Source: Minisyncoccota bacterium
Lineage (GTDB): Bacteria; Patescibacteriota; Minisyncoccia; Phycocordibacterales; Phycocordibacteraceae
NCBI GenBank assembly: GCA_039927695.1
Contig: JBDSUM010000007.1
Span: 11,700-75,699, forward strand
DNA length: 64,000 nucleotides
Direction: 5' to 3'
This document shows, piece by piece, positions 714 through 30,110 of this stretch. The translations under genes and the position numbers were made by a program. Below the pieces are notes generated by a model, which saw only the letters and a program-made list of their open reading frames with translations, made no database searches and was not told where the DNA came from. Within the stretch, counting starts at the first letter, position 1. Every line of letters begins with the position of its first letter.

Positions 714-2033
714 TTAAGCACAGAGTTTAATTGCTTTATCGCTAAGCATAATTCTACTCCTTAAGCATCCAAGTAATTCACGCTTTTCAATATCAGCTCC
801 TTCTCGTAGAAGGTATTTTGCATAGTTCCTAATATCAATATCTCCGACCTGGATTTTGGTTTTCGTATTAGCAATAGCTTGCTGAAACTTCTTGAATCTC
901 TCTACTTCGGCCTTGATTTTTTCTTTGATGCCAATCTCGTTAATATCGATAGTATCTATGAGACCTATAAACTGCTCTATAAGATCCGTTTCATTTATAT
1001 ATCCAGACTTACAGTTCACATCCTTGCCCTTACCACAGCCGTAATAGACATGACGGTGAATATTTCCATTCTTTTGTTTCTTGAACTTCTCATCAGCTGA
1101 AATGCTTGAACCACACAGTCCGCATTCCATGAGTCGAGTGAAGGCAAATTCTTTAGTCTCCGCGCGAATGATTGAACGCGTAGTCTGTTCTTGAACTAAA
1201 TCAAATAACTCTTTCGTGATTAGCGGCTCGTGCTTCCCTTGGTACCAACGTCCTGAATTCTTAGGGTATTCAAATACTCCGTAATAGAAGGGGTTTTGAA
1301 GAAGGATATAAATATTGCTTAAACTTAGATTCTTATTCCCGGCAGCGGTCTTGAAATTAAGATCGAACTTGAGCCAGTTATATACCTTACGTCCACTCCA
1401 TTTCTCATATCCTACCTTTTCAAACATCTTCTTAATTATCATCGCTCGATCGGGATCAAGAATACTTTGGCACTTTCTGTCCAGTCGCTGTTCCTTTAAA
1501 TAGCCAGTTGGAGCACGTCCTGGCAGAAGTCCCATTTCAACCCTCGTCTTTAAACCTCTCTTTACATTAATACTCTTGTTGTCGTTTTCGAGCTTCGCTT
1601 GGCTGCAAAGAATCATTAGAAGGAACTTTTCGTTAGGGGAGTTCCTGAAATGCTGTCCGTAAGTGCGAATCTCTAACAATAGCTTCTGATCCATTAAATC
1701 TACGAGCGTCCCTAAGTCACCAGCATTCCTACTTAACCTATCTGGTGCCCAAGTAAGGACAGCATTGAATCGTCCTCTCCTAATGTCTTCGAGTAGCTCC
1801 TGATATACCGGCCGCTGTCCTGAATCTTTGGCTGAATGCGACTCTCTCCGTATATCTATTATTTCTAGATTCTCTCGCTCGGCTATCTGTAGCATTTCTT
1901 TAATCTGCGAATCTATCGAAAGGGCTTGCTTCTCGTCTGATTCGGTAGATTTGCGAGCGTACAGACAGTATTTGATTTTCTCTTCAATGATGACGGGCGA
2001 TAGCCCTATTTGAGAAGTTTCTAATCTTTGCAT
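714..2033 (-). CDS. Large serine recombinase (resolvase/integrase family)
   Basis: N-terminal resolvase motif YARKST with catalytic Ser; recombinase domain; C-terminal Cys-rich zinc ribbon (CGLCG...YYGCGKGKDVNC); 439 aa. Confidence 0.9.
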   Translation of the reverse strand: MQRLETSQIGLSPVIIEEKIKYCLYARKSTESDEKQALSIDSQIKEMLQIAERENLEIIDIRRESHSAKDSGQRPVYQELLEDIRRGRFNAVLTWAPDRLSRNAGDLGTLVDLMDQKLLLEIRTYGQHFRNSPNEKFLLMILCSQAKLENDNKSINVKRGLKTRVEMGLLPGRAPTGYLKEQRLDRKCQSILDPDRAMIIKKMFEKVGYEKWSGRKVYNWLKFDLNFKTAAGNKNLSLSNIYILLQNPFYYGVFEYPKNSGRWYQGKHEPLITKELFDLVQEQTTRSIIRAETKEFAFTRLMECGLCGSSISADEKFKKQKNGNIHRHVYYGCGKGKDVNCKSGYINETDLIEQFIGLIDTIDINEIGIKEKIKAEVERFKKFQQAIANTKTKIQVGDIDIRNYAKYLLREGADIEKRELLGCLRSRIMLSDKAIKLCA

Positions 2034-2037
2034 ATAG

Positions 2038-2340
2038 TTATTTTAATTTACGTAATGCCTCAGCTCGAAGTCTCTCCGTATCTCGAAGTACGGACAAATA
2101 TACCCTCCGACTTTTCTTTGTCCTTGGATGAGTGTTGAGCCAATCGATCAGCTCGTCTGGTACATACGTGGCGAGGGAGCTATAGGCAACTATCAGTTCT
2201 TCTATCCTCTCAAGAATTGCTCGCTTCAGATCCTTCTTGGAATTGGGGAGTAGGGAAATTCTGTTCAGACAGGCAGAGTCGGACTCCTTTGTAAACCGAT
2301 AATGGGCTGCGGTATCTAATATTTTGTCCCTGTCTTCCAC
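2038..2340 (-). CDS. Small hypothetical protein co-transcribed upstream of serine recombinase (possible directionality factor/regulator)
   Basis: 100-aa basic ORF 4 nt upstream of recombinase on same strand; no recognisable motif. Confidence 0.3.
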   Translation of the reverse strand: MEDRDKILDTAAHYRFTKESDSACLNRISLLPNSKKDLKRAILERIEELIVAYSSLATYVPDELIDWLNTHPRTKKSRRVYLSVLRDTERLRAEALRKLK

Positions 2341-2611: not shown

Positions 2612-3331
2612 TTGTGCTACCCACCAGAATTACAAATCGCGACCAGCAATATTATGGATAATCCATCACAGCCTTCTACGAAGGCTACTCACCTTACCCT
2701 AGGTAAAATTATTATTTGGCTTCTGAGTGTCGGACTCTTGGTTTCGGGAATAATATCCCTCTTTACTAACTTCGGCATGGGACTGACCATCATTCTGGCA
2801 AGTTTGGTGATCTTACCACCGCTGACAAAATATCTGAAAGAGAAACATAACTTCTCAATCTCTGGACCACTCAAAATAGTGCTCCTGTTCGGGATCATCA
2901 TGATAGGAGGATTTATTATTAGCCAAGGTAAGGATACGGCTCCTGCTGCTACGGAAACACGTCCATCTGCAGCATATGATGTTCCTTCTCTCCTAGGACT
3001 AAGTCTCAAAGAGCTTGAGGCGAAGCTTGGTACATCCTCATACGATACCGAACCGACAGCACAACAGCTCGCTATCGGTGGAATCGATACATGGGAGAAA
3101 AGCTGGAATAATGGTGACTACAGTCTTATGGCTACGTACGACATAAAGACCAAGAAAGTTACTGACCTCTTCCTTAGTGCAGATACGGATGCCGCATTCA
3201 AGAAATTCGAGGATACTGACAATATTCTTACAGCAGGGAATCTTTCAAAGAACGACTCTCATTACTCGGTTGAATTTGTTAAAGCAAAGAATGGTCCTGG
3301 TTACACAGGAGCAATTGTTCGCCTCAAATAA
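2612..3331 (+). CDS. Membrane protein, 2-3 N-terminal TM helices plus soluble C-terminal domain
   Basis: Hydrophobic stretches at N-terminus; no family recognised. Confidence 0.45.
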   Translation: MCYPPELQIATSNIMDNPSQPSTKATHLTLGKIIIWLLSVGLLVSGIISLFTNFGMGLTIILASLVILPPLTKYLKEKHNFSISGPLKIVLLFGIIMIGGFIISQGKDTAPAATETRPSAAYDVPSLLGLSLKELEAKLGTSSYDTEPTAQQLAIGGIDTWEKSWNNGDYSLMATYDIKTKKVTDLFLSADTDAAFKKFEDTDNILTAGNLSKNDSHYSVEFVKAKNGPGYTGAIVRLK

Positions 3332-3387: not shown

Positions 3388-4878
3388 TTACCAGGAAAGA
3401 TCGCTCCAGTTCATGCTGTAGACACGAGGTACGCTAGGCGGATCTTGAGAGACGCTATGAACGAGGTTTGAGAATGCGTCGGCAAGGTCGTCATGCTTCT
3501 CAACTCCGAAGTGGACTATCTGCTGGATTAACTGCTCAGCTCCTTCTCGAGGGAACACGACTTTTCCGTCTCTGATTGAATTTGCCGTAAGGACAAGACG
3601 ACTTCGCTTATCGGTGGCACCAGGACGGACGGTCTTAACGTTGTGTACGCCTTCTTCCTTCAATTGTTGTGGCAGTGCTTTCTGATACGCTACATCCTCA
3701 ATAATAAAGATAGGGTATCGCTTATCCGATTCGTAGTAACTCTGTTCCAGAATCTTGCACGTATCTACTGTTTCAGGGAAGTTCAGTCGTTTGTTAATGA
3801 TCTTGGGAAGAATATACAACCGATAGCCTCTCTCAAGTTCATAGAGGAGTCCTGGTACCATGGCGGTATAGTCCGCAGTTGCGCTCTTCGAAATCGCTGG
3901 GTCTATACCAATACGCACTTCACGATACGAGGAATAACCGCTTTTGAATCGAATCGGTGGTGGTATCTCGTCGTAGTACTGGATCCATTCGCGGTAAATT
4001 GCTTGGTCGTCGGCTGGGACGATATTCAGCATATATTCGCGCTGCCAGGCGTACTCGTTTCCGGCTCGTCGCTTTTCGTTTTCAATTTCCTCCATATTTG
4101 AGTACTTACCCGGCCATAGGATTTCTCCGTCTTTTGTTACGAGTGGATACTCTTTGAACACGGCGTCGATTGTGTTTTTCTCAACGCGCTCTTTTAAACG
4201 CATAAGAAGCGAATCCTCGTGAAGTAAGTTACCGATAACAACGATACGTGTAGTGCGATCTCCGGTCGGGATAACCTCTCCAGTGAACCATTGGAAGGTC
4301 TTGTCGCGACCTTCGCGCGTCTTCGTGGAAGCGATATCCTCTACGTCGTCTCCAATGATGAGATCAGGGCGATGCTGGTTGTGACGCAAACCACGGATAC
4401 TCTGCTCACTTGAAGCTGCCGTAATGCGTGCGCCGCGCTCGGCAAATACGAGTGAGAACGAACCCCATTCGTCCGCCTCTTCTTTGAATGGCCCTAAATC
4501 ATCCTTCAACATCGAATTATTCTCTAATTCGTTTCGCAAGTTTCGCATATGCTGCTTCGCTTGGCTCTGTGTCTGACAGAGAATCAGCACGAACTTCTTC
4601 TGTTGTTTTCCGAGGATTGCCCAGATAGGATAAGAAGTTGTAATAATTGTAGACTTACTGCTTCCGCGAAACGCGACTACGAACAAGTTTCCGATGTTCT
4701 CGTCTTCAATCAATGAGATCATCTCTGACTGAAACGGAGCAGTCGCGTATTTAACGTAGTGAGCGAAGTAGAAGTGGAAGAAATACCACAGACTATTTTT
4801 AGTGATTGCTATTCGCACTGCTCGATCCTTCATCATCTTCTCTACTAGTTCCGGTGGAAGCATATTTACCTGGTTCAT
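3388..4878 (-). CDS. Phage terminase large subunit
   Basis: Walker A-like FRGSSKST; ATPase + C-terminal RNase H-like nuclease architecture; 496 aa; directly downstream of a small HTH protein. Confidence 0.85.
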   Translation of the reverse strand: MNQVNMLPPELVEKMMKDRAVRIAITKNSLWYFFHFYFAHYVKYATAPFQSEMISLIEDENIGNLFVVAFRGSSKSTIITTSYPIWAILGKQQKKFVLILCQTQSQAKQHMRNLRNELENNSMLKDDLGPFKEEADEWGSFSLVFAERGARITAASSEQSIRGLRHNQHRPDLIIGDDVEDIASTKTREGRDKTFQWFTGEVIPTGDRTTRIVVIGNLLHEDSLLMRLKERVEKNTIDAVFKEYPLVTKDGEILWPGKYSNMEEIENEKRRAGNEYAWQREYMLNIVPADDQAIYREWIQYYDEIPPPIRFKSGYSSYREVRIGIDPAISKSATADYTAMVPGLLYELERGYRLYILPKIINKRLNFPETVDTCKILEQSYYESDKRYPIFIIEDVAYQKALPQQLKEEGVHNVKTVRPGATDKRSRLVLTANSIRDGKVVFPREGAEQLIQQIVHFGVEKHDDLADAFSNLVHSVSQDPPSVPRVYSMNWSDLSW

Positions 4879-5264
4879 GTTTGGTTTTCAGTTGGTAAGT
4901 GGCCAGCAAGGCGTAACGCCTCACGTACCGTTGCTTCTTGTTCAGGATTCAGCTCTTCCTGTTTCGGTTTCATTTCAACCTCAATTTTGTCTTTGAACTT
5001 TGGGTTACGCTTGCGAAGCCAGAAGGATATGGCGTGCCAGTTCTTCTCACGAATAAGAACGAGGAGTTGGTTCTCACTCATGTCGTTTACTAACGCTTCG
5101 CCGTCAATGAGTGCGGTTTCCATTTCTTGAGCAAACTCAGGGTCATCGTTTTTCCAACGGTACACGCTGTTTCGCGACACACCGACCTTTTCACACGCAA
5201 CTTGTACAATCGGCACCTTACGAAGCTGCTCCAAGAAAGTGTCTTTTACCTTGTTCTTTTTCAT
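4875..5264 (-). CDS. Terminase small subunit-like HTH protein
   Basis: 129 aa; HTH segment VACEKVGVSRNSVYRWK; stop overlaps the start of the large terminase. Confidence 0.55.
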   Translation of the reverse strand: MKKNKVKDTFLEQLRKVPIVQVACEKVGVSRNSVYRWKNDDPEFAQEMETALIDGEALVNDMSENQLLVLIREKNWHAISFWLRKRNPKFKDKIEVEMKPKQEELNPEQEATVREALRLAGHLPTENQT

Positions 5265-6538
5265 ACGCGCTTCGCCTTATTGCCCGTCAGCTTCTCGTAT
5301 CGTTTGATGGCGAGGTCGCAGAACACTGGCTCAAGCTCAACCGCATAGACGCGACGTTTCAACTGCTCGGCCGCAATCATGGTGCTACCGGAACCTGAAA
5401 AGCTGTCGAGAATAATGTCGTTTGGTTTTGTGCAACGGCGAATCGCTTTCTCGTGAAGCTTGGGAGGCTTTGACGTTGCGTGTTCGTAGTCCTTGCCGGA
5501 CAAACGCTTAACCATCCACACGTCGAGATGGTCGAGCGTTTCTTCGATTAGATTATTGCCGGTCGTAATTTCCTTATTCAGTACCTCGTTCAGGTTCTGA
5601 ATAGACTTTGTAATATATGGCTTACCGCGCACGCCATAGACGCAAGGTTCGTAGCACTTATTGAATGCAACTGACGGCACGGGATTCTGGGAATTCTTGA
5701 GCCACAGGCAAACGCGCTTGTTCGCGATACCAAGTTCGCGGTACAGCTCCTGCATAAGGCCGATATAGATCTGGTCGCACCAGTAGAAGACGTGAGTATC
5801 AGCCTTTGCAACAGAAAGGGCAGCGATCATGGTTTTGACGATAAACTCCTTGTATTCAGCGTCGGTGCGGTTATCAAGAACGTTCCCACCATAGTTCTTC
5901 TTGCCACCAATACCGCCGTTGTAGTCGATGTTGATGTTATAGGGCGGATCGCTATATATCATGGACGCACGATCATCACCGAAAAGGCGAGTGAGAACGG
6001 CAGGGTCTGTGGAGCTTCCACAGATAAGGCGGTGTTGGCCGAGCTGAATTAAATCACCGACTTTTGTTACAGGCTCTGTTATCTTCTTAAACTCCTTTTC
6101 TTCGTCGAAGTCGTCGTCTTCAGCTTCAAGGTTCTGCGCCCACAGATCGGATAAATCGCTCTCGTCAAAGCCGCTCTCAAGGAGTAGATCAAGGTCAAAA
6201 GATTTAAGCTTCTCAAGATCCCACTCTCCACTTATGGCATTTGAAGAAATTAAATACTGCTCAAACTCTTCTTTTGTGAGCTTGCGGTTAGGTACTCGTA
6301 CATCGATTTCTTCGTCTCCGCGATCAAGTAGCTGTAGGGCTTTGAGTCTTTGATGTCCGGCGACTACAGTATTGTTGGTATCTATTGCCGGGATCTCGAC
6401 AAGGTTAAATTTCTGAAGACTCTTCTTCAGGTCTTGTAATTGCTTATTAGTAAGTTTGCGAGGGTTCGCCTCGTATGGCAGGAGAGAGCTGACTTTACGT
6501 TGCTCTGTGTGCCAGGAAAGTTTTGCGCGTATGGGCAT
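5261..6538 (-). CDS. ParB-like nuclease domain fused to N6-adenine/N4-cytosine DNA methyltransferase (beta class)
   Basis: N-terminal ParB box (VVAGHQRLKA); motif IV SDPPYN precedes motif I FSGSGST (beta-class order); typical phage ParB-MTase fusion. Confidence 0.85.
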   Translation of the reverse strand: MPIRAKLSWHTEQRKVSSLLPYEANPRKLTNKQLQDLKKSLQKFNLVEIPAIDTNNTVVAGHQRLKALQLLDRGDEEIDVRVPNRKLTKEEFEQYLISSNAISGEWDLEKLKSFDLDLLLESGFDESDLSDLWAQNLEAEDDDFDEEKEFKKITEPVTKVGDLIQLGQHRLICGSSTDPAVLTRLFGDDRASMIYSDPPYNINIDYNGGIGGKKNYGGNVLDNRTDAEYKEFIVKTMIAALSVAKADTHVFYWCDQIYIGLMQELYRELGIANKRVCLWLKNSQNPVPSVAFNKCYEPCVYGVRGKPYITKSIQNLNEVLNKEITTGNNLIEETLDHLDVWMVKRLSGKDYEHATSKPPKLHEKAIRRCTKPNDIILDSFSGSGSTMIAAEQLKRRVYAVELEPVFCDLAIKRYEKLTGNKAKRV

Positions 6539-7502: not shown

Positions 7503-7856
7503 ATGAAAAACAACATGACCTTAGGGACATTTATCAGAGGAAAGAGAGACGAGCTTGATTTATCGCTCACGGAGTTTGCCAAGCTAATTGGTAAAACAGC
7601 TCCGTTTCTATATGACATTGAATTAGATAGACGACATCCATCTGATGAAGTTCTAGATTTGATTGCACAAAACTTAAAGGTATCGCGAGTTGAATTAGAT
7701 AAGCACGATACTCGTCCTCCAACTAAAAATATTAGAACGCAAATACAAGCAGACCCGCAGTACGCTTTTGCATTTAGAAAGACAGCAGATAGTGGCTTAA
7801 GTCCAGCTGAGATAATTGCTGCAATTGAAAAGGCTCAGAAGAGTAAGCGGGGTTAA
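7503..7856 (+). CDS. XRE-family HTH transcriptional regulator
   Basis: HTH_3-like LSLTEFAKLIGKTAPFLYDIE near N-terminus; paired with downstream ImmA-like peptidase. Confidence 0.75.
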   Translation: MKNNMTLGTFIRGKRDELDLSLTEFAKLIGKTAPFLYDIELDRRHPSDEVLDLIAQNLKVSRVELDKHDTRPPTKNIRTQIQADPQYAFAFRKTADSGLSPAEIIAAIEKAQKSKRG

Positions 7857-7864
7857 CAACTTTT

Positions 7865-8557
7865 ATGAAAAATATTCGCGCATTCGAAGGTCCCCATAAA
7901 GATCGGCCTTTTTATGAGAATCACGAGATTGAGCGAATGTGTATTGAAGAGTTGAGTACATACAATCTGCTCCCAGATGAACCGTCGCCAATTCGTATCG
8001 AACGATATATAGAGAAGCGACTCGGCATTACTCCAGCTTACGAAGAGATACCATCTAACATTCTTGGATTCACAAAGTTTGGCACCGCTGGAGCAGAAGC
8101 AATCGTCGTATCACGTTCGCTTCAAGAAGACGGTACTCAATCTTCTGAGCGGCGTGTACGTACGACACTCGCCCATGAAGCTGGGCACGCGTTACTCCAT
8201 GCACATCTTTTTATGAAGCCGACGAGGAAGATGAAAGAACTTTTTGATGACGAACACACAGACATGTCGAAGGTGCTTTGCCGCGACATCGTTGAGAAGA
8301 CCTCTGAAGACGCTCCAAAGTATTCATGGTGGGAATTTCAGGCGAATGCTGCCATGGGTGCACTTCTACTACCCGAGAACCTTTTTCGTACGGCGGCCAA
8401 TCCCTTTTTTGAGTCCACGGGGCTACTCGGCGATACCCCCGTCATCACGCAAGAGGGAAGGGGTGAGCTCGAACGCTCGCTCGCAGACGTATTCGACGTA
8501 AATCCTATCGTCGTACGACATCGTGTCCAGCAGGTGTACTTCCCTAACCGTAAGTAA
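7865..8557 (+). CDS. ImmA/IrrE-family zinc metallopeptidase
   Basis: HEAGHALLH (HExxH) motif in a ~230-aa protein immediately after the XRE regulator. Confidence 0.8.
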   Translation: MKNIRAFEGPHKDRPFYENHEIERMCIEELSTYNLLPDEPSPIRIERYIEKRLGITPAYEEIPSNILGFTKFGTAGAEAIVVSRSLQEDGTQSSERRVRTTLAHEAGHALLHAHLFMKPTRKMKELFDDEHTDMSKVLCRDIVEKTSEDAPKYSWWEFQANAAMGALLLPENLFRTAANPFFESTGLLGDTPVITQEGRGELERSLADVFDVNPIVVRHRVQQVYFPNRK

Positions 8558-8907: not shown

Positions 8908-8912
8908 AATAT

Positions 8913-9797
8913 ATGCATAACGTACCATCGTCGGTTGTCGAACCGCTCCTGCGAGGACCTTCGCCACGAAAGATCACTCAGGTTGCGCAGCTACAGAATG
9001 ATATTCAAACTCTGCTCGGCTCTACACACCATACGTTCCTTCAGGGCTCTTACAAAAATAATACGGCACCATCTGATATCAACGATGTCGATATTGTCGC
9101 TGTACGGCGAACTACGTATAGCGGCGTACATTCACCTCAACGAAACAACCAGCATGATCGTATAGCTTGGGATTCTATATTTTCTGAACTTGAAATACTT
9201 TTAGACGGACATCCAGAGTACGACTGGACTGTAGAGCGTGGAGACAAGTGTATAAAGCTCACTGGTCCGTTTAATGTCGACGTTATTCCCGCGGTCGTCT
9301 ACAGTACTCATGACGAAGATCCAATAGTGGTCTATTCAATGCGTGATGGGCGAGAAATCGTAAATCATCCCCGAACGCACTATGAGAATGGAGTCGAGAA
9401 ACACGCTTCAACAGGAGAGCTCTATAAGCCAACCGTACGTATGTTTAAGAACTGGAAACAGAATCACTACGGACAGGACAAGAGTATGGTCTCATCCTTT
9501 AAGATTGAAGCTTTGGTTAACGCAGTCGACGATGCGGAGTTCGTTGAAGATCCGGTCGCACGATTCATCCTCGTGGGTGCAAGTATCCTCGAGCTTATGA
9601 ACATGCGTTCGTTAGTACCGACGCGTATCATGAGTGTGTGCGGAAATGAGGATATTACTGAGCACTGGGATTTGGGCGCGCGACGTCAGTTCGTCGCTCA
9701 GCTATCCGAATCTGTGAATCACGCACGGCTTGCATTCTCTGCCCCGACAGCAGCGGTTGCTACACAGCATTGGAATAATGCTTTCAACGTCTACTAG
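8913..9797 (+). CDS. Pol-beta-superfamily nucleotidyltransferase, SMODS/CD-NTase-like
   Basis: GS-x9-D-x-D motif (QGSYKNNTAPSDINDVDIV) with downstream acidic residue (FNVDVIP); 294 aa, too large for a minimal MNT; next gene is a 2TM protein. Confidence 0.6.
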   Translation: MHNVPSSVVEPLLRGPSPRKITQVAQLQNDIQTLLGSTHHTFLQGSYKNNTAPSDINDVDIVAVRRTTYSGVHSPQRNNQHDRIAWDSIFSELEILLDGHPEYDWTVERGDKCIKLTGPFNVDVIPAVVYSTHDEDPIVVYSMRDGREIVNHPRTHYENGVEKHASTGELYKPTVRMFKNWKQNHYGQDKSMVSSFKIEALVNAVDDAEFVEDPVARFILVGASILELMNMRSLVPTRIMSVCGNEDITEHWDLGARRQFVAQLSESVNHARLAFSAPTAAVATQHWNNAFNVY

Positions 9798-9798
9798 T

Positions 9799-20985: not shown

Positions 20986-22413
20986 ATGAACAAAGCCACT
21001 CGAAGTCAGAAGATTGGGGAAATCACTGCTGGCGAACCCTACGGCAAGCAAGATATTCTCTGGCATGGAAAGCTCGTGTCAATGAACGTATATGAGATTC
21101 CTCTCGAGTATTTGATTTACAACAGGTACAACGGACGAATTCTTAGTCGAACAAAGACTCTTGAAAAGCAGGGACGGGATATAAATCCTGAATCCGATGA
21201 GGGCAAGAAGCTCATCGAGAATCTTCTTTGGAAATCCAAGGAATCGAGAAACGATATCACTATGAAAGATATCTCCGATAAGGGTCAATTGAAGATTGGT
21301 ATTGTAACCAAAGATGGAATCGTTATCGATGGAAATCGGCGCTTGATGCTTCTTAACAGAATTAAAAAGCATCGCCACTTTAAAGCAGTAGTTCTTCCTG
21401 TCGCCCTTGAAGATGATCCTATTGAGATTGAGAAGCTGGAGACAACATACCAAATGGGTGAGGATGAGAAGCTCGGCTATAACCCAATCGAGAAGTATCT
21501 CAAAGCAAAACAAATCTATAAGAAGCTTACAGAGCAAGAAACTCACGATGATGCCATAAAGCAGATTGCTGAATGGATGGGGGAGGAAAAAGGAGTTATT
21601 GAAGACTGGCTAGAGGTAGTCAAAATGATAGATGATTATCTCGAGTATCTAAAGTACGACGGGATATACTCCATGGCTGACACTCCAAACGACGGTAAGG
21701 AAGACCTCTTCTTGTATATAAAGAAATGGCTAAATACTTTCCACGATAAAGAGTCTAATAAAGGATTCGATGGGTACAGCCAAATGGATGTAGATGATCT
21801 TAAACAAATTTCTTTTGACTATATTCGCGCTAAGATTGGAAAATCCTATGATGGAAAACAGTTTCGTTACATCGCTGATGGTCAAAAGCAGAAACATTTC
21901 TTTGGAGACAAGAAACTGTGGGCTAGTTTTAGCGAAGATCACTTTGCGGCAGTTACCCCCGCAATCGAAAAGATAGATTTTGAATATCCAATTGATTATA
22001 ACTCTGAAAATATTGAAGCATCTCTCTCAAATAGAGATGCAAAGTTCAGAGATGAGGTATTGGATGTTCTGACAAAGAATATTGAAGAACATGTGACAGA
22101 CCTCGGCTATGCTGAAGCTGCTGATAAACCTCTCAAGCTCGTAAGTAATGCGCGAAAGGCTATTGAATCTATTGATCAAAAGCACAAAGCCTTCTCAGCG
22201 CCTGAAGTCATTGAGCAGGTTGAAGAATTGATCCAGACTCTCATAGGAATGCTAAAGAAGAAGTCTCCTGAGGAAACGGTCTCTTTAGTTGCGAATCTGC
22301 TCGAATCTCTTGAATTGAATTCGGGATCGATTGACAAGGAAGGTATGCTCGAAAAGGTAAAGGAAATATCGCGTCTAGCTTATCAAATTGAGAAAGACGT
22401 TAAATCGCTGTGA
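20986..22413 (+). CDS. ParB/Srx-fold (ParB-like nuclease domain) protein
   Basis: GQLKIGIVTKDGIVIDGNRRLMLL matches the ParBc core; rest unrecognised; 475 aa. Confidence 0.55.
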   Translation: MNKATRSQKIGEITAGEPYGKQDILWHGKLVSMNVYEIPLEYLIYNRYNGRILSRTKTLEKQGRDINPESDEGKKLIENLLWKSKESRNDITMKDISDKGQLKIGIVTKDGIVIDGNRRLMLLNRIKKHRHFKAVVLPVALEDDPIEIEKLETTYQMGEDEKLGYNPIEKYLKAKQIYKKLTEQETHDDAIKQIAEWMGEEKGVIEDWLEVVKMIDDYLEYLKYDGIYSMADTPNDGKEDLFLYIKKWLNTFHDKESNKGFDGYSQMDVDDLKQISFDYIRAKIGKSYDGKQFRYIADGQKQKHFFGDKKLWASFSEDHFAAVTPAIEKIDFEYPIDYNSENIEASLSNRDAKFRDEVLDVLTKNIEEHVTDLGYAEAADKPLKLVSNARKAIESIDQKHKAFSAPEVIEQVEELIQTLIGMLKKKSPEETVSLVANLLESLELNSGSIDKEGMLEKVKEISRLAYQIEKDVKSL

Positions 22414-22425
22414 TAATGAATATTC

Positions 22426-24402
22426 ATGAGCCAATCTATAAATATTCATACAGATAACGAGAGACATAGTTTCTATTTAACAGGTAATATCCCAGAGTTA
22501 CTTGCGAATTCTAGACTGCTTTTCTCGCTCAAGAGATTACAATACACCCCTCACGAAGAGGGAATGTTAGTACCATTTGAAGATAAGACTAAAATTAAAG
22601 TTCTCCAAGAGATTCAAATGCTCATGGAGAAGTTTTCTTTCGATGTTGAACTTTCGATAGAAACCAAGAAAGATGTTTCTAGCTTTGATCGTGAGCAACA
22701 GACATTTAAGGAATTCTCAGAGAAGGCACGAGATATCCGTAACAATCGGTTCAAGGATGAACCTGAGTTAGTTGTAGACTTCGATTCCTTTCAGAAGGCA
22801 TTAAAGGATAAAATCGTACGTCCTTTATATCCTCTGCAATTATTGTCTGCTTTTCACATGGCTTTCTCGCAAAATGCTTGTAATTTTGCAGTGCCAGGTG
22901 CAGGAAAGACCTCAATTGTTTACGGTGCGTATACCTACCTAAAAAGTCTTCCTACTGATCATCCTAAACACGTCGACAAGCTTCTTGTGATTGGCCCGCT
23001 TTCATCTTTCGCGCCGTGGGAAAATGAATATGAGGCTTGTTTTGGTGAAAAGCCCACCTCGCAAAGATTGTCAGGGGACGATAAGGTTTTGCGTAATCAT
23101 AAGGAGCAACACCTTTTTTCGAGTAATCCTGCTGAACTAACCCTTATATATCATGGAGGTGTTGTTCATCTTCAAAATGAAATACTTTCTTTTCTAAAGA
23201 GAAATAAGACTATGGTGGTAGTTGACGAGGCACACCGAATTAAGAATCCTGAGGGTGTATGGGGCAAGAGCGCCGTAGAGATTTCAAAAGAAGCGGTCTC
23301 CAGAATCATTCTTAGCGGTACACCAGTTCCCAATGGCTATGAGGATTTATTTAACTTATTCCAATATCTATATCCGTATCGCTATAAGGACATACTACAT
23401 TTCCACTACGATAATTTAGTTGAAATGACCAAAACAGCTTTGCCCGATAGCGATCGAGTAAAGCAATTCATAGATAATATCTCACCTTACTTTATACGTA
23501 TTAAAAAGTCTGATCTTAAATTGCCTCCAGTTAAGGAGAATAACGTAATGGTTGATATGGATTCTCACCAAAGAGAAATCTATGATTTTATTGAGACAAA
23601 ATACATACGTTCCTTTGAAAATAGTAATACGGCGGCAGCAAAAGATGTCTTAAATAAAGCGAAATTAATTCGTTTAAGACAGGCAGCTACAAATCCCTCT
23701 CTGCTCCTTAAGCCCATAGTAGAAACCCTCTATGCTGACGACTACGAATCAAGAATCTCTATAGGCGGACGTATGCCTGAAGAATTTCAAGATGATTCAG
23801 AGATACTCTCAAAGATATATAACTATCAGAAGGTAGAGACCCCTAAGAAATTCTATGAAATTAAGAAGTTGTTAGAAGAAAAAATCCTTGCAGGTAATGG
23901 TAAGGCAATTATTTGGACGATATTCATACAGAATGCCAAACAACTTCAAGAGTATCTAATGGAGAATGGTATTCCGATTCGTCTACTTATTGGAGAGGTT
24001 GAACAATCAGAGAGGGAGGTAATTATCACAAAATTCAATGATCCGAATGACAGTGATTTTCAGGTAATCATCGCAAACCCATTTGCCGTGTCAGAGTCTA
24101 TATCTCTGCATAAGGGATGTCACAACGCTATTTACATGGAGCGTGATTATAACTGTTCTAACTTCCTTCAATCAAAAGATCGTATACACCGATATGGCCT
24201 AGCGGACAATCAAGAGACTAATTATTACTATTTCTTATCACAAGATTCTATTGATGGAGTCATTCACGATAAATTAGAGGAGAAGGTCAAGAGAATGGAA
24301 AGAATTATCGATGAAGAAATACCACTTTTCGCTCGACTTAATGACTCTGACGAAACAGATTTGATAACAGCTCTTATAGACGATTATGCTAAAAGAGCTT
24401 GA
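22426..24402 (+). CDS. SNF2-family helicase/translocase
   Basis: Motif I PGAGKT; motif II DEAHRIKN; motif III LSGTPVPNGYEDLFNLFQYL; helicase-C motif VI SKDRIHRYG. Confidence 0.85.
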   Translation: MSQSINIHTDNERHSFYLTGNIPELLANSRLLFSLKRLQYTPHEEGMLVPFEDKTKIKVLQEIQMLMEKFSFDVELSIETKKDVSSFDREQQTFKEFSEKARDIRNNRFKDEPELVVDFDSFQKALKDKIVRPLYPLQLLSAFHMAFSQNACNFAVPGAGKTSIVYGAYTYLKSLPTDHPKHVDKLLVIGPLSSFAPWENEYEACFGEKPTSQRLSGDDKVLRNHKEQHLFSSNPAELTLIYHGGVVHLQNEILSFLKRNKTMVVVDEAHRIKNPEGVWGKSAVEISKEAVSRIILSGTPVPNGYEDLFNLFQYLYPYRYKDILHFHYDNLVEMTKTALPDSDRVKQFIDNISPYFIRIKKSDLKLPPVKENNVMVDMDSHQREIYDFIETKYIRSFENSNTAAAKDVLNKAKLIRLRQAATNPSLLLKPIVETLYADDYESRISIGGRMPEEFQDDSEILSKIYNYQKVETPKKFYEIKKLLEEKILAGNGKAIIWTIFIQNAKQLQEYLMENGIPIRLLIGEVEQSEREVIITKFNDPNDSDFQVIIANPFAVSESISLHKGCHNAIYMERDYNCSNFLQSKDRIHRYGLADNQETNYYYFLSQDSIDGVIHDKLEEKVKRMERIIDEEIPLFARLNDSDETDLITALIDDYAKRA

Positions 24403-25360
24403 GCAATATGAGAACCTTGGCACGCCAGCGTTCTTTGCAGAGTTATTTAACCAACTCCACGGAGCAGAACTCCCTTGGACGTCTAGCCACGTAAGAGGTT
24501 ATTTTTATAACAGGATTGTAGATGACAATTCTGTCTTTGATGGCTGTCTTACCTTAGTTGAAGCCATTGGTGCAGTGACCATCGATAGCGGTGGAAACAT
24601 CACACTAAACCCTTCTTTGGTGCCAATGCTCGTAAACGAGAGATACCTTGCGAACAAGTTACTTGAGATGCTATTGGCTGTAGTAAAGGAAGATGAAATT
24701 TTTCATGAAATATTCTGTCCCAAGAATCTCTCATACGACATTATATATAAACTGATTCAAATTGATGGTTCAGCTTTTCGATTCCGCTATGCTAGTTTTA
24801 GGCAATTGCTGGTAAGTTTTGAATTCTTATACCCTCATCCTGAGAAGAGCATCAGAAAATATATAGTTAATTCAAGGTATAAGAAGCTGTTTGATCAACA
24901 GATTTTACCTGAAATACGTCAGCGTAAACTTGGCATTGAAGAACTCGAGGCTCTTCTAGAAAGGAAACAAATCTATGGAGAACAGGCAGAATCATATGCC
25001 CTCGAATATGAAAGAAAAAGATTGGCCAAACATTCAAGTTTGGGCAATGTTGAATTGATTTCTGGATATGATGTCGCCGCAGGATATGATTTGATCTCCT
25101 ACGAAGATGAATCTTCAACAGAGCTCGATCGGTTTATAGAAGTAAAATCCTTTTCAGGTACTCCAAGCTTTCATTGGTCACGCAATGAAATAGATGTCTC
25201 AAGACTAAAAGGGAAGAGATATTTCCTCTATTTAATAAATAGAGACGAAATGGCAAATTCAACCTATGTTCCTACAATCATACAGAATCCCTACGATGAA
25301 GTATTGTCGGATGATAGTTGGACGAAGCGTGTAGATAGTTATTTTATAATTAAGAACTAG
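24386..25360 (+). CDS. DUF3883-like (predicted PD-(D/E)xK nuclease-related) C-terminal domain protein
   Basis: GYDLISYEDESSTELDRFIEVKS resembles the DUF3883 core; overlaps the SNF2 stop (operon). Confidence 0.45.
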   Translation: MLKELEQYENLGTPAFFAELFNQLHGAELPWTSSHVRGYFYNRIVDDNSVFDGCLTLVEAIGAVTIDSGGNITLNPSLVPMLVNERYLANKLLEMLLAVVKEDEIFHEIFCPKNLSYDIIYKLIQIDGSAFRFRYASFRQLLVSFEFLYPHPEKSIRKYIVNSRYKKLFDQQILPEIRQRKLGIEELEALLERKQIYGEQAESYALEYERKRLAKHSSLGNVELISGYDVAAGYDLISYEDESSTELDRFIEVKSFSGTPSFHWSRNEIDVSRLKGKRYFLYLINRDEMANSTYVPTIIQNPYDEVLSDDSWTKRVDSYFIIKN

Positions 25361-25606
25361 GTCTTAGTGATACCACTTTTTCCTTCAGTTCAATTTTCCC
25401 GCGTAGACAACCGAGCAGTTCTCTTTTCTCCATATCTTTTCCTTCGCGTAATAGATACTTTGCATAAGCTCTTATATCAATCTCCTGAACGTGTTTATCA
25501 GATAAGGCCATATCAGCTATGCTAGGGCTAAAAATGGGACGCCAATCCTTAATGGGGAGGCGTGTCCCATTTGTCTCATTTTGCGATAAGCGTATAGTTT
25601 GGCTAT

Positions 25607-25888
25607 ATGGATGAACAGAAGATTATTGATGATTTAACTTCGCAAGGGTACGACAAGGTCTGGCCTTATGAAGCTGAACCTGGAGAAGTAGACGAGGAAC
25701 ATGAACATGACTTTGATACTCATCTCGTCGTTCTAAGAGGACAGATCTCAATAACTTCTTTAATTGATGGGGTGGTTACGAACATGTCTCATAGTACGGG
25801 GAGCAATATATTTATCGCTCGAAATACACCTCATGCGGCTAAAGTGAGTGCAGAGGGTTGTCGCTACATTGTTGCTGAAAAGCACTAG
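25607..25888 (+). CDS. Small cupin-fold protein
   Basis: 93 aa; His/Glu-containing beta-strand segment typical of cupin_2; weak. Confidence 0.35.
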   Translation: MDEQKIIDDLTSQGYDKVWPYEAEPGEVDEEHEHDFDTHLVVLRGQISITSLIDGVVTNMSHSTGSNIFIARNTPHAAKVSAEGCRYIVAEKH

Positions 25889-25955
25889 TCCGAGACGGGT
25901 CAAATTCAGAAGATAAAATTCGCTCAGAAAGCCTTGTGGGGCTTGGCGGGAGAAA

Positions 25956-25977
25956 GTTCGAATCCCAGACAGCCAGC
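25956..25977 (+). repeat. Conserved intergenic repeat, copy 5 (internal 6-nt deletion)
   Basis: gttcgaatcccagacagccagc. Confidence 0.55.
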
Positions 25978-26059
25978 ATTTTAGAAAAGTATCGAAGGAC
26001 CTAGAGGGGTCGGTTTGGGACTAAGTGCTTTAGAGTGAATTTTCTATATAATTCTAGTT

Positions 26060-28768
26060 ATGAATAGACTGGATAGTGAAATACTAACGATCGATACAGC
26101 CATCTGTGAAAATATCGATAAATTCCACGCCTCAGAAAGAGGTCTTTTGTCGCAGAATATCTTGGCTCAGCTTAGGAATTTTGTTGAGCATATCGCCCTA
26201 AAAGAAGAATCAAACGGACAAGACATTGATTTTACATTTGAAGATTTAAAGAACGCGCCTAATAGAATACAACCGAAGGGATCGCTGGCATACTTGAGGA
26301 GATTTCATAATTTTTTACAAGGAGTGGCCTCACACTATACGCAGAGCAAAGAAAACTCAGAACGCCTAATGCTGAAATACTATGAGTATTTAATCAGGAT
26401 TAAATCCCGTCTTAAGAACACCTATGGCTTAGAGGTGCTAAGTAATATTGATAAGTTCCCAACAAATACGGATCCTGCCTTGCAGGAATATTACGAAAAG
26501 ATAGTGGAGAAAATCGAACGCCCAACAAAAGCGAGAAGGGTCAGTCCTTATAGTGATCGGTACTATATCCAGAAGATCAAACCATTTTTTGTTAAGCACG
26601 AAATATACTACGAAGTCACTTTTACAATTGCGAGCGCTCAAGTTAGTAAATTTGATAGAGTCATCGCTTTTACCAAGCTAGATATTTCCGATAATTACGC
26701 CGTTAAACTTTCCGTAATACATGACGATATTGAGGTCTTGGGCAAAAAGATGCCTATTCACATCATTGATAAATGGGAGGTTTCTGTTCGACCTTGCGAG
26801 CTTAACAACTTTAGTCGCATTTTGGGTGAGAATGTAGATATTCAATCAAAGAGTACGGAATACAAAAACCTGATGAGTTTTTTGACAGAGACTAGTCTAA
26901 GTTTCGTTGAGCTTATCGATCTCTCTGATGATTACTATGATGCTGCGAAAAGCCGTATCGCTCAGGGGGTACAAGCAATACACTTCCTAACTGTCTTAGA
27001 TAAGGCAAAGGCCTTGGTTAGGGGTAATGAAGTTGGTACTAACGTGGTGAGATATTTACTGCGATCTTTAAACAATAGGATTATAAAGCTACAACGAAGT
27101 CGCTATGGCGGGTACAAACTTCGAGAAGATTTAGGCTTCAATCTTGGATGTAAGCCGTTCGATACAATGCCTTTCAACTCCTCACTGATAGGACACAACC
27201 CAAAGATTTCAGATGTTTTTGAGTGTATTAGTGCAGCAGATCGAGAGCATGAACTTTTTGCAAGACTAATTAAGGACAATACAGAAAATAAAGGAAAACT
27301 ATATACGCCTGTAGAAGGTTTACCTCAGACAAAGGAAGAGATTGCAGAGCTAGTCGCTACTTACAACGCTGAGCTTTACTACAAGCACACACATCGCAAG
27401 TTAGAAAACTTTAGAGATTTTATTTATATAAACGGTTATGAAAAAGATACTTTAGACATAATTAAAAGACTCAAAGAGTTGTCATCAGGTGGGATAAACA
27501 ACTATTCGAATTCTGTAGATTCGTGGCTGAAGTCGTCCGCATATCAAATTGACTGCGAAGATAAGGAAAGGATTCTAAGACAGATGTTTACAGATTCTGA
27601 AGTGGCATTGATATACGGTGCAGCTGGTACTGGAAAATCAACGTTGATAAACCACATATCAAACTTTTTCAACGAGAATCAGAAGCTCTACTTAGCCAAT
27701 ACCAATCCCGCCATTGATAACTTGAAGAGAAAAGTTAACGCATCAAATAGCACCTTTCAGACGGTTGCTAAATTCCTATCGCATCGAAATACCGAAACAG
27801 AATTCGATCTCCTTATTATTGATGAGTGCAGCACCGTTAGTAATAAAGATATGATTGATGTTTTGAATAAGGCAAAGTTTAAATCCCTTATATTGGTTGG
27901 TGATGTATTCCAGATAGAATCGATAATATTTGGAAACTGGTTTAATGTTGCAAGATCCTTTGTGCCAAAAACGGCGGTATCCGAACTAACAGTTCCTTAT
28001 CGGACTACGAATCAAGAACTGATTAAATTTTGGAACAGAGTTAGAAATCTTGAAGACAATATTCTTGAAAGCATGACGAGGAATGGTTATACCACCGTCT
28101 TAAATGAATCCATTTTTGAGACCCTAGAGGACGATGAAATTATTCTCTGTTTAAATTACGACGGTCTGTACGGCATAAACAATTTAAACAAGTTTCTTCA
28201 GGGTAGTAATGAAAATGTTCTTGTGCATTGGGGCATACAAACTTACAAGATTGGTGACCCTGTTCTCTTTAACGAAACAGATCGATTTGCGCCAATAATC
28301 TATAACAACCTAAAAGGCCGAATTGTTGGTATAGATAAATCTGAAGATCAGATCCAATTTGATATTGAGATAGATAAGGCAATAAATGAATTGCAAGCAT
28401 CAGGCTATGATTTTGAATTGGTCGGGAGTGCTGCAAACGGGAATTCAGTAGTCAGATTCTTGGTTAGCAAGCAAGGAGACACGGACGAAGATGATGAGCC
28501 GCTAGATTCAGTGGTCCCATTTCAAGTCGCCTATGCTGTGTCAATTCATAAGGCTCAAGGTCTAGAATACGGTTCTGTGAAGGTTGTGATTACGAATGAA
28601 AGCGAAGAGATGATCACTCATAACATTTTTTACACAGCCATAACTAGAGCTAAGGAGAAACTTAAAATATATTGGACGCCTGAAGCAGAGAAAAAAGTAT
28701 TAAGTGGTTTTAAGAAGCTAGATGCGACAGAAGATGTCGGACTTCTGTCCTCGAAGCTCACCTCATAA
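26060..28768 (+). CDS. SF1 helicase (RecD/Pif1-like, AAA_30 + UvrD_C_2) with ~500-aa uncharacterised N-terminal domain
   Basis: Walker A GAAGTGKST; Walker B LLIIDECS; VGDVFQ motif III; C-terminal VSIHKAQGLEYGSV...FYTAITRAKEKL. Confidence 0.8.
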   Translation: MNRLDSEILTIDTAICENIDKFHASERGLLSQNILAQLRNFVEHIALKEESNGQDIDFTFEDLKNAPNRIQPKGSLAYLRRFHNFLQGVASHYTQSKENSERLMLKYYEYLIRIKSRLKNTYGLEVLSNIDKFPTNTDPALQEYYEKIVEKIERPTKARRVSPYSDRYYIQKIKPFFVKHEIYYEVTFTIASAQVSKFDRVIAFTKLDISDNYAVKLSVIHDDIEVLGKKMPIHIIDKWEVSVRPCELNNFSRILGENVDIQSKSTEYKNLMSFLTETSLSFVELIDLSDDYYDAAKSRIAQGVQAIHFLTVLDKAKALVRGNEVGTNVVRYLLRSLNNRIIKLQRSRYGGYKLREDLGFNLGCKPFDTMPFNSSLIGHNPKISDVFECISAADREHELFARLIKDNTENKGKLYTPVEGLPQTKEEIAELVATYNAELYYKHTHRKLENFRDFIYINGYEKDTLDIIKRLKELSSGGINNYSNSVDSWLKSSAYQIDCEDKERILRQMFTDSEVALIYGAAGTGKSTLINHISNFFNENQKLYLANTNPAIDNLKRKVNASNSTFQTVAKFLSHRNTETEFDLLIIDECSTVSNKDMIDVLNKAKFKSLILVGDVFQIESIIFGNWFNVARSFVPKTAVSELTVPYRTTNQELIKFWNRVRNLEDNILESMTRNGYTTVLNESIFETLEDDEIILCLNYDGLYGINNLNKFLQGSNENVLVHWGIQTYKIGDPVLFNETDRFAPIIYNNLKGRIVGIDKSEDQIQFDIEIDKAINELQASGYDFELVGSAANGNSVVRFLVSKQGDTDEDDEPLDSVVPFQVAYAVSIHKAQGLEYGSVKVVITNESEEMITHNIFYTAITRAKEKLKIYWTPEAEKKVLSGFKKLDATEDVGLLSSKLTS

Positions 28769-28787
28769 GAAGTAGTTCCTGGGGTCA

Positions 28788-30110
28788 TTAAATTATATCC
28801 ACACGTTTGTTGTTTAGGACTATTTTACTCTTCAGACACGTCAATAAATCTCGCTTCTCAAACATCGATCCTTCGGTCAGAAGATACTTTGCATAGTTCC
28901 TGATGTCGGCTTCCTTTGCATAATAGATTTCTTCGGCTTTGCCCATGATGCCGGAGTGGAACTTCTTGTGCCGTTCAATCTCGGCCTCCAGTTTCTTCTT
29001 GATGCCTGAATGATCAAGGTCGACTTGGTCGATGATTTCTGTTAGTTGGTTGATGAGAATCTTCTCTTCGATATACCCCTCCTTGCAATTGATGTCTTTG
29101 GATCGGGTGCAGCCGTAGTAAATATACTTTGCAATTGAACCGTCCTTGAGGTTTTTAAACTTCTCCTGGGCAGTTACGCCTGAACCGCACGCTCCGCAGG
29201 AGAGGAGTCGAGTAAAGGCAAACTCCTTGTTCTTATTTGGCGCGCGGATTTGAAGATGGAGTTGTTTCTGGACGGCATCGAATAATTCCTTAGATATGAG
29301 CGGTGCATGCTTTCCCTGGAACCATCGTCCGCTTGTTTTCGGATACTCAAACGAACCGTGATAGAAGTGGTTGGCCAGAATAACGTAGACATTGCTCAAA
29401 GTGAGAGGCTTTCCGGTTCTTGTGACGAACTTAATATCCTTGAGCCACCTGTATACCTTACGGCCACTCCATCCCTCGTTCGCTACTTTCTGGAAGAGTT
29501 CCTTGATAATCGGTGCTCGGTCGGGATCTATGAACACGACACCCTTCTGATCCTTATTCTTGGAGTTGAGGTATCCAGTTGGCGCTACTGACGGCCAGAG
29601 ACCCATTTCGCATTTGGTCTTGAGGCCGCGCTTTACGTTAATACTCTTGTTGTCGTTCTCAAGCTTGGCTTGGGAGCCAAGAATCATGAGGAGAAACTTC
29701 TCGTTCGGATTGTTGGTGAAGCGTTGGCTGTAGGTACGGATTTCTATGAGTTTCTTCTGATCGAGGAGGTCTACTACTGCACCGAGGTCTCCCGCATTTC
29801 GAGCTAGGCGGTCAGGATGCCAGACGAGGATGCCGTTAAACTTTCCCTCGCGGATATCGAGAAGCAGTTTGTTGTATACCGGTCGCTGTCCGGCATCCTT
29901 TGCGGAATGTGACTCTCGATACATATCCACCACGTTCAACCCATCTCGCTGAGCTACGGCCAACATCTCGTTTAGTTGGGAATCTATGGAGAGTGCCTGC
30001 TTCTCTTCAGCTTCGCTCGATTTACGGGCGTACAGGCAATACCTGACGGGTTCCTGCTCCTGGAGGCCGGGAATAGTTATATTCGCTCCATATGCTGTTG
30101 CGGTTTCCAT
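28788..30110 (-). CDS. Large serine recombinase (paralogue of 714..2033)
   Basis: YCLYARKSSEAEEKQ catalytic motif; roughly three-quarters identical by eye to the 714..2033 protein over the catalytic domain; zinc ribbon CGACGSG...YYGCTRSKDINC. Confidence 0.9.
   Translation of the reverse strand: METATAYGANITIPGLQEQEPVRYCLYARKSSEAEEKQALSIDSQLNEMLAVAQRDGLNVVDMYRESHSAKDAGQRPVYNKLLLDIREGKFNGILVWHPDRLARNAGDLGAVVDLLDQKKLIEIRTYSQRFTNNPNEKFLLMILGSQAKLENDNKSINVKRGLKTKCEMGLWPSVAPTGYLNSKNKDQKGVVFIDPDRAPIIKELFQKVANEGWSGRKVYRWLKDIKFVTRTGKPLTLSNVYVILANHFYHGSFEYPKTSGRWFQGKHAPLISKELFDAVQKQLHLQIRAPNKNKEFAFTRLLSCGACGSGVTAQEKFKNLKDGSIAKYIYYGCTRSKDINCKEGYIEEKILINQLTEIIDQVDLDHSGIKKKLEAEIERHKKFHSGIMGKAEEIYYAKEADIRNYAKYLLTEGSMFEKRDLLTCLKSKIVLNNKRVDII

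Follow-up and report, generated by a model that had tools for sequence, protein, structure and literature searches.

The system closest to the locus described here appears, by analogy of layout, to be the set of ssrA-specific islands of Dehalococcoides (DsiB; McMurdie et al. 2011, PMC3146451). Those islands lie in tandem downstream of a small RNA gene, are bounded by repeats of its 3' end, and carry a reverse-strand module with a CcrB-like large serine recombinase (LSR), a ParB-domain protein and a DNA-modification gene; the module holds a pseudo-tRNA, recombinase-less islands are interspersed, and accretion has been proposed. The staphylococcal cassette chromosome composites (SCCmec/SCC, with CcrAB or CcrC; PMC3146451) likewise move by LSRs, target a conserved gene at its 3' end, restore the integration sequence and therefore stack in tandem. 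In the streamlined genomes of Prochlorococcus, tycheposons (Hackl et al., bioRxiv 10.1101/2020.12.28.424599) target tRNA genes, with partial tRNA copies between elements, newcomers that push older ones along and scattered degraded integrases, and some resemble phage-inducible chromosomal islands (PICIs) with terS. Tyrosine recombinases are present in 474/501 tycheposons, with replication modules (bioRxiv 10.1101/2020.12.28.424599). Here, we analyzed a 64,000-nucleotide stretch of contig JBDSUM010000007.1 (hereafter, the window), from a bacterium of the Patescibacteria (Paceibacterota) within the candidate phyla radiation (CPR), whose three LSR genes, rec1, rec2 and rec3, lie in an arrangement that recalls all three systems in the respects just listed.

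We propose that ~1-38.5 kb of the window is probably a tandem array of LSR-moved integrative islands at a tRNA-Gln-type site of the chromosome, and that the three recombinases likely belong to separate islands, inserted one after another, that built a 35-kb anti-phage defense block. In contrast to the Dehalococcoides islands, the target is of tRNA-Gln type rather than the transfer-messenger RNA gene, there is a single LSR without a small DsiA/CcrA-like partner, the islands include both terminase subunits (TerS and TerL) and a LOOT RNA, the cargo is anti-phage rather than dehalogenases, and the host is a CPR bacterium, with relatives across many CPR classes. Unlike SCCmec, the array has no rlmH target and no two-recombinase pair, differs in cargo and host, and includes a terminase; unlike tycheposons, it uses serine recombinases and has TerL as well as TerS, and no primase/helicase module was found. 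New here are the host group, the single recombinase, the tRNA-Gln-type target, the terminase pair, the LOOT RNA, the defense cargo and the breadth of the family. Apart from an inovirus survey, we found no literature linking Patescibacteria with LSRs, or the CPR with serine-recombinase prophages. Genomes of CPR bacteria are very small, few mobile elements have been described from these bacteria, and one abundant LSR family that carries and stacks defense systems at a tRNA-type site would offer a concrete account of how defense islands form in them. The base-exact attL, attR and attB described below belong to a new LSR clade, and LSRs with known sites are sought as tools for genome integration.

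Three large serine recombinases and a remnant

The three genes are encoded on the minus strand, as originally predicted, and open reading frames (ORFs), Pfam domains and catalytic motif all agree on their identity. The products of rec1 (714-2033; 439 aa), which is the type member of the rec1-type islands, of the divergent rec2 (10950-12449; 499 aa) and of rec3 (28788-30110) match Pfam Resolvase, Recombinase and Zn_ribbon_recom. The resolvase catalytic domain (PF00239) is found in all three at E values of 1e-20 to 3e-24 and PF07508 passes in each, while the zinc ribbon (PF13408; cut-off, 25.3 bits) passes in rec1 (29.0 bits) and falls just below the cut-off in rec2 (24.6) and rec3 (22.3). In the alignment of the three proteins, the R-K-S catalytic motif is invariant and the CxxC...C pattern is conserved; over the full length, rec1 is 60% identical to rec3 and 33% identical to rec2. 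The 3' remnant of a fourth, rec1-type recombinase gene lies at 25365-25532 on the minus strand (55 codons), matching rec1 residues 383-437 at 57% identity (tblastn E 8.5e-13); its 5' part was not found anywhere in the window.

The original prediction took rec1 and rec3 for paralogues within this genome, a view that their relatives do not support. The 120 best relatives listed for rec1 are 74-87% identical and those that bear a name are almost entirely Patescibacteria, one of them, a 'Candidatus Paceibacterota' protein from a metagenome-assembled genome at NCBI, being identical to rec1 (100%); the relatives of rec3 form a separate set, 75-88% identical, from other genomes. Since each thus has its own relatives at 85-88% elsewhere, no duplication took place within this genome, and rec1 and rec3 stand for two clades of a single, very large LSR family specific to the CPR. 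When each species was represented by one genome, scanning returned at least 579 matching stretches; the family yielded more than 8,000 scored database candidates, and it is spread across many CPR classes. Our comparison set, searched by tblastn with the window proteins, consists of 80 species-level genome loci and 52 IMG/VR loci; compared loci and contigs carry L-numbers, L001 being the sequence left of the window. Relatives of rec2 were not found in IMG/VR, exact-protein look-ups with rec2 and with a cupin encoded in the array returned no other genomic contexts, and a DNA comparison of window 1-14 kb with the phage collection gave no match.

The rec3 island and its empty site

The original prediction called for comparison with an uninterrupted homologous locus, and one was found by an exact-protein look-up of the gene at 34599-35321. 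L150, a 1,785-bp contig from the sister sample SRR26386601, is identical to window 25808-25977 over 170/170 positions, ending ...GTTCGAATCCCAGACAGCCAGC, and resumes directly at window 34529 (CAACTCGTGCTAGG...), again identical. As L150 joins 25977 to 34529, the intervening 8,551 bp (25978-34528) are a discrete segment that is present or absent between samples: the rec3 island is a recently mobile insertion, polymorphic for presence. Its two junctions have only CAGC in common, with no longer duplication; these four bases are too short for a chimeric join in a k-mer assembly. Assemblies of two other samples break at 34530-34554, which is what a mixed population would give.

Within the island, rec3 lies in the middle, preceded on the plus strand by the superfamily 1 helicase of the candidate defense system PDC-S53 (26060-28768; 1307 bits) and followed by an EcoRI-type methylase (30237-31478), a GmrSD/HNH restriction enzyme (31480-32583) that forms with it a type II restriction-modification pair, and a DUF2130 gene (32589-33866), all on the plus strand, and by a DUF5681 gene on the minus strand (33936-34295). 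The 2.8 kb of cargo between rec3 and the left junction explain why sequences beside LSR genes diverge straight past the stop codon, and they exclude the candidate limit that this divergence had suggested, namely, an island ending at the LSR stop codon.

The left half of attL (25932-25977, plus strand), detected with the terminal-motif model described below, is also the terminus of the preceding, degraded island; the right half of the target is a hairpin arm, CAACTCGTGCTAGGTTATCGCGCTCGAGACGCGTCG (34529-34564, plus strand), so that the target site reads 25956-25977 joined to 34529-34564. The island's own terminus is ...ACCAGACTAAGCATCGCAGC, and its attP can be reconstructed as …GCATCGCAGC joined to ATTTTAGAAAAG… or, in shorter form, …ACCAGACTAAGCATCGCAGC joined to ATTTTAGAAAAGTATCG…. 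The crossover would fall inside CAGC, the exact dinucleotide being a tentative placement. The core of rec1-type sites lies between the arms of a CACGAG/CTCGTG dyad, an arrangement that one would expect where a serine recombinase acts.

Distal termini and the repeat family

The distal end of the rec1 island (10844-10996, plus strand) comprises GTAAC/GTCAC boxes (10880-10892), a half hairpin (GCACGAGACGCGTCG) and a tRNA-like motif ending ...GACGGCCAGC(A). The same end, ~150 nt long, is conserved in rec1-type islands: GTAAC/GTCAC boxes (GTGTCACTTTTGTCACTTTTT), found in ~40 loci, are followed by the half hairpin GC(A/T)CGAGACGCGTCG and, ~35 nt beyond it, by CTTACAGGGCTTGACCGACCACGGTTCTAAC.CGAGACGGCCAGC(A), after which the flanks diverge immediately. 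Searched with a hidden Markov model (HMM) of the last 48 nt, 39 related loci have a single match each at E<=1, and in 37 the E value is below 1e-5. Every match is antisense to the LSR and upstream of it, at a distance of 0.19-9.9 kb from the LSR start. The pairwise homology of related elements in different contexts ends on the last base of this motif (L040 3204/L056 2631; L055 69/L057 947). Related elements that share both ends are 4.6-8 kb long, and minimal units of ~1.6 kb, with LSR and terminus only, also exist.

In the window, the HMM matches 10950-10996 (E 2.5e-9) and 25932-25978 (E 0.07). The rec2 island would begin at the base after 10996, and the last 16 codons of rec2 lie inside the rec1 island's terminal motif, into which the rec2 ORF extends by 47 nt (10950-10996); since these C-terminal 16 residues are encoded by an attachment site, they would change on excision. 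In operon with rec2 is a rolling-circle-type replication initiator (REP_ORF2-G2P; 12446-13228, minus strand; PF23343, E 5e-11; phrog_3419). A contig of sample SRR26386594 that carries rec1 and rec2 ends at window ~13418, ~190 nt beyond the start of this Rep gene, where there is no repeat; the contig may stop here because the rec2 island varies, or simply because coverage is low.

The attachment sites were originally suspected to relate to a conserved repeat family, and this relation holds. The family, TTGTTCGAATATCGTCCCAGACGGCCAGC, includes the left arm of the rec3 target, and the rec3 island lies immediately 3' of one copy. Its 22-mer is matched 4 times when up to 3 mismatches are allowed (0.00 expected by shuffling), and nhmmer finds ten copies, all at 15.2-38.5 kb; the rest of the window has none, and neither have the 7.4 kb on its left side. 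The repeats appear to be a set of element termini ending ...CAGC at the junction, of which there are ~12 between 10996 and 38448. All copies are on the plus strand. The short termini include one at 15237-15265, a candidate right end of the rec2 island, and one at 18272-18300. The copy at 19076-19136 (E 1e-10) has in addition a hairpin-like right arm, forming a full att-like site that parallels the rec3 target over ~55 nt, and may be the left junction of the degraded island. Between this site and the start of a C5 methylase gene, a near-perfect 25-nt inverted repeat (96%, 1-nt gap; 19144-19194) could be a terminator or operator. Six further copies (35361, 35892, 36138, 36450, 37534 and 38420; 35361-38448 overall) separate one- or two-gene units without a recombinase (DUF1697, glyoxalase and others), which are presumably decayed or non-autonomous.

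The inverted repeats originally expected at the element ends did not emerge: a plain search for inverted-repeat partners of LSR 3' ends in the window and 46 loci gave nothing above shuffled controls, and an apparent one, spotted by eye in L055, found no support in the same test. The att sites were found only by comparison with other loci.

The hairpin arm and the tRNA-type target

The hairpin that forms the right half of the rec3 target recurs at the proximal end of rec1-type islands elsewhere. The fetched loci have 18 related hairpins, each of them 3' of an LSR, antisense to it and 1.1-9.4 kb away from the LSR stop. What immediately precedes the hairpin is in most cases a tRNA-Gln, tRNA-Ser or tRNA-Trp ending ...CCGC/CAGC(CA), and in 4/18 another element's terminus; other tRNAs in the same loci, without this end, have no hairpin. 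A metagenome scan with the 36-nt hairpin yielded 17 contigs in which the sequence to the left always ends in CAGC or CAAC. The same junction thus recurs after tRNA-Gln genes: a complete tRNA-Gln precedes the hairpin in six of the 17 (L155, L156, L158, L161, L164 and L166), as it does in L015, and the tRNA-Gln bodies of the six differ, so their hosts differ. In other contigs, the hairpin is preceded by a rec1-type terminus (L160), a rec3-type terminus (L168 and L169) or, in six cases, a short terminus of the window's repeat type. In L167, a 75%-identical LSR with TerS and methylase follows 6.9 kb past the hairpin in the usual orientation. In L164 (~1619-1700), tRNA-Gln and hairpin are followed ~35 nt later by the start of the terminal motif, which looks like a miniature element of two ends only.

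We considered that the hairpin might be the trailer of the host tRNA (B'), but it is near-identical after different tRNA-Gln bodies and after element termini. Because it is uniform across contexts and an LSR follows in one fixed orientation, it belongs to the element. From these comparisons we conclude that the hairpin is, in all appearance, the proximal end of rec1-type islands, that their chromosomal target would be the 3' end of tRNA-Gln (...CCCG-CA-GCCA), which the island restores, and that the island's own terminus seems to imitate the tRNA-Gln end.

The conserved module of rec1-type islands

The terminase pair and phage-type methyltransferase next to rec1 were correctly recognized in the original prediction. 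On the minus strand, the module starts with an N6/N4 DNA methyltransferase (5261-6538; PF01555, E 3e-29), whose homologue in L004 also has a ParB_N domain, followed by TerS (4875-5264; phrog_4044, E 2e-11), a full-length TerL (3388-4878; phrog_38, E 1e-87), the two terminase genes spanning 3388-5264, and rec1. Co-oriented genes for N6-methylase, TerS, TerL and LSR are present in ~50/80 genome loci and in most of the 52 IMG/VR loci, and this set is kept even where the LSR is only 43-60% identical. An ORF labeled o119 was considered as a relative of the rec1-island TerS and proved not to be related. Portal, capsid and tail genes were found neither by Pfam nor by PHROGs in window 1-34 kb, nor in the gaps between TerL and LSR of L025, L071, L072, L123, L134 and L135, which instead contain a KAP NTPase, reverse transcriptases, an SNase nuclease, ThiF with JAB and a type IIG restriction-modification enzyme. 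The rec1 island yielded neither a primase nor a Rep gene.

The gap between TerL and rec1 holds on the plus strand a LOOT RNA (2478-2602; Rfam RF03000 match at 2483-2597 with 69.8 bits, the gathering score being 46.4), whose transcription leads away from rec1, and, 3' of it in the cargo slot, a variable gene of 239 aa without Pfam or PHROG match (2612-3331). LOOT occurs at the same position and strand in 4/7 related loci scanned (L004, at 9410-9545, L017, L020 and L028; 64.8-85.8 bits), and a model built from five copies finds 45 in ~135 loci. Every copy upstream of the LSR is antisense to it, in most cases no more than a few hundred bases from the LSR start; the eight downstream copies are on the same strand as the LSR, seven of them 40-100 nt past its stop. 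In both positions, transcription of LOOT runs away from the LSR. LOOT often stands 5' of a variable gene. On these positions, we regard it as a component of this element family, which gives an orphan Rfam family a defined genetic context, physically tied to an LSR gene.

On the other side of the methylase, an HTH_3 regulator and an ImmA/IrrE-type M78 peptidase form a repressor/anti-repressor pair (7503-8557, plus strand; Pfam), at whose position L008 has an S24 LexA-like repressor. Directly upstream of rec1 is a 100-aa ORF without Pfam match (2038-2340, minus strand), with 76-84% identical copies in the closest relatives L004, L011 and L020.

Several variations on the module were noted. About 150 nt upstream of the methylase start, many loci (L015 6600-6749, L020 5015-5163, L024, L017, L028, L029, L046, L053, L060, L071 and L078) have a conserved, apparently structured motif, …GCGTAGTAAAAAGTAGAATAGCGTATCGCC…CCTATTCCGCGCAAGAA-loop-TTTCGTGTGTGGAATAGG-TTTTC, of which other loci have a second variant, GGTGGTGCC…CCCACTTCGT…GCGAAGTGGGCTTTC; it had no Rfam match at the gathering threshold and could be an RNA leader or terminator. 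In the distant IMG/VR loci L111, L114, L116, L117, L119 and L142, the LSR is preceded by two methylase genes and by two tandem TerL-like genes that are 46-49% identical to the window TerL. In L025 (6339-8436) and L135 (8865-9935), the slot between TerL and LSR is occupied by genes for reverse transcriptases of retron/Abi size (346-356 aa); in L025, one of them adjoins an SNase-domain gene that directly follows LOOT.

Defense cargo

The cargo of the window appears, from domain content, to be mostly anti-phage defense: besides PDC-S53 and the type II restriction-modification pair of the rec3 island, it includes a cyclic oligonucleotide-based antiphage signaling system (CBASS) and a methylase/SNF2 system. 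The CBASS (8913-10422, plus strand), labeled cargo B of the rec1 island, consists of an oligonucleotide cyclase of the CD-NTase type and a single Cap15-type effector with two transmembrane segments (2TM), without ancillary genes, and is of type I on that composition; it is supported by Pfam (Cap15_CD_rec, E 7e-20) and PADLOC (Cyclase, E 2e-30; 2TM Effector, E 2e-37). The second system (19256-25360, plus strand; Pfam and PADLOC) is a defense-type operon of a C5 methylase, a 475-aa protein, an SNF2 helicase and a NOV_C/PD-T4-1-like protein, which converges on the LSR remnant, the position labeled cargo A.

A model of tandem accretion and its rivals

Seen in the orientation of the window, a rec1-type island would begin with the hairpin end (P'), continue with variable cargo that converges on the recombinase gene, then with the LSR, the LOOT RNA and variable gene, TerL, TerS and methylase, the protein genes of this module lying on the minus strand, and finally with the regulator and more cargo, the GTCAC boxes and the tRNA-like terminal motif ending ...CCAGC (P). 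Its recombinase would make the crossover within CAGC, where a tRNA-Gln-type sequence has its 3' end. Terminus and following arm resemble the original target, and each insertion would leave a new landing site at the far end, on which the next island lands; because the terminus imitates a tRNA end, islands would stack. Read from left to right, the array would then comprise the rec1 island, up to 10996; the rec2 island with its rolling-circle Rep, from 10997; two LSR-less units ending at 18300 and 19104; the degraded island (19105-25977), with a hairpin-like arm, the methylase/SNF2 operon converging on the remnant, the cupin gene and a terminus; the rec3 island (25978-34528); and the hairpin at 34529 with six short units, before ordinary chromosomal genes (Ldh_2, adenylosuccinate lyase, ornithine decarboxylase and NadR-like) from ~39 kb on. 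The original prediction spoke of serial insertion of nested elements. The seriality is directly visible for rec3 in the empty-site contig and plausible for rec2, whose island would start at the terminal motif of rec1, the other steps likewise following from motif positions; the nesting has to be given up, as the islands are stacked in tandem.

Several observations weigh against this model or narrow it. The polymorphism of the rec3 island shows the gain or loss of a discrete segment and not which enzyme acted, and its circular junction (34528 joined to 25978) was not found in JGI metagenomes; that rec3 itself catalyzed the insertion is thus our interpretation. The P' arm of rec3 lacks the hairpin, and the two clades may read somewhat different sites. 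Neither the window nor the 7.4 kb left of it has a tRNA gene, so that the seed of the array is not seen, nor is the proximal end of the rec1 island, as neither hairpin nor terminal motif was found left of rec1; this island probably extends leftward through a convergent gene and a cluster with an RHS toxin. The similarity of the termini to real tRNAs is statistically weak, except for one tRNA-Ser (z 5.1) and the copy at 19076, and we therefore discarded the idea that the termini are plain tRNA copies. Finally, the flanks of rec1 and rec2 are identical in both samples that carry them, without polymorphism, and these two islands may be fixed.

From the last observation it could be argued that the whole block consists of old, fixed and vertically inherited insertions with inactive or domesticated recombinases (e.g., invertases or resolvases). 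One LSR is already a remnant, and L004, L011 and L028 share an LSR beside the same M23-peptidase neighborhood. We consider this highly improbable: identical flanks at the same sites, which the original prediction had named as the sign of ancient insertion, are seen for rec1 and rec2 in two samples only and speak weakly, while sister samples differ in the presence of the rec3 island, whose junction is base-exact, all three LSR ORFs have their full length and intact catalytic motifs, and LSRs more than 85% identical occur in unrelated contexts. It is also unlikely, if somewhat less so, that the rec1-type LSR and its terminal motif form a fixed, integron-like platform, comparable to intI/attI, which captures cassettes ended by short repeats, only the cassettes being mobile. 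In the window, L028 and L054, the short-repeat arrays are indeed always located past the distal terminus of an LSR unit, the recombinase-less units of one or two genes are all co-oriented, and the ~1.6-kb units of LSR and terminus would suit such a platform. However, rec1-type units with both ends conserved in different contexts must move themselves, the one insertion demonstrated carries its own LSR, and no presence/absence polymorphism was seen for any small unit; moreover, the recombinases are all of serine type, with no tyrosine integrase, and the termini of ~30-50 nt have no attC-like R''/R' boxes or folded site.

TerL, TerS, a ParB-type methylase and the HTH/ImmA pair are typical of prophages, and IMG/VR classes the 52 related contigs as viral. 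That the recombinases mark serially inserted prophages that have since decayed is nevertheless very unlikely. The four-gene module stands beside the LSR without portal, capsid or tail genes in ~50 species-level loci and distant IMG/VR relatives, and random decay would not spare the same subset each time; in the slots examined, defense genes follow TerL where a phage would encode its portal, and elements with both ends are only 4.6-8 kb long. The module is a conserved, capsid-less set of genes found beside this LSR in dozens of genomes.

Phage satellites, PICIs among them, are small integrative islands with an integrase, a repressor and packaging genes, no capsid genes, and defense cargo at hot spots beside the integrase. 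The rec1-type islands combine an LSR, an HTH/ImmA pair (an S24 repressor in L008), TerS and TerL without capsid genes, much like PICIs, although to our knowledge a full TerS and TerL without any capsid gene is not a described satellite layout; neither a replication module nor a helper phage was identified for these islands. The terminase would presumably serve packaging into the capsids of a helper phage. We raise as a tentative possibility, more doubtful than not, that the rec1-type islands are the first phage-satellite family of the CPR/Patescibacteria, with their own terminase, the GTCAC boxes as packaging site and LOOT in control of excision or packaging. If so, most defense-gene traffic in these tiny genomes would use one LSR/terminase vehicle, and the orphan LOOT RNA would gain a function.

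Other observations

Just left of the gene convergent on rec1, L001 (~-7360 to -110) encodes a 2,023-aa SpvB/RHS toxin together with a membrane protein of 74 aa that probably confers immunity to it; L009 has a 2,922-aa RHS protein on the other side of its element. These RHS toxins may be further cargo of the arrays. In addition, LSRs of different clades share one neighborhood in L009 (11318-21126) and L145 (11317-21320), where the LSR is followed by a variable defense gene (Shedu SduA_C or KAP NTPase), holB, dus, serS, dprA and topA, which suggests a second recurrent insertion hot spot away from tRNA. Beyond the array, an ORF of 1,293 aa at window 52630-56511 has an 82-nt coding repeat in four diverged copies (53482, 54346, 54925 and 55210); it probably encodes a repeat-domain surface protein unrelated to the islands.

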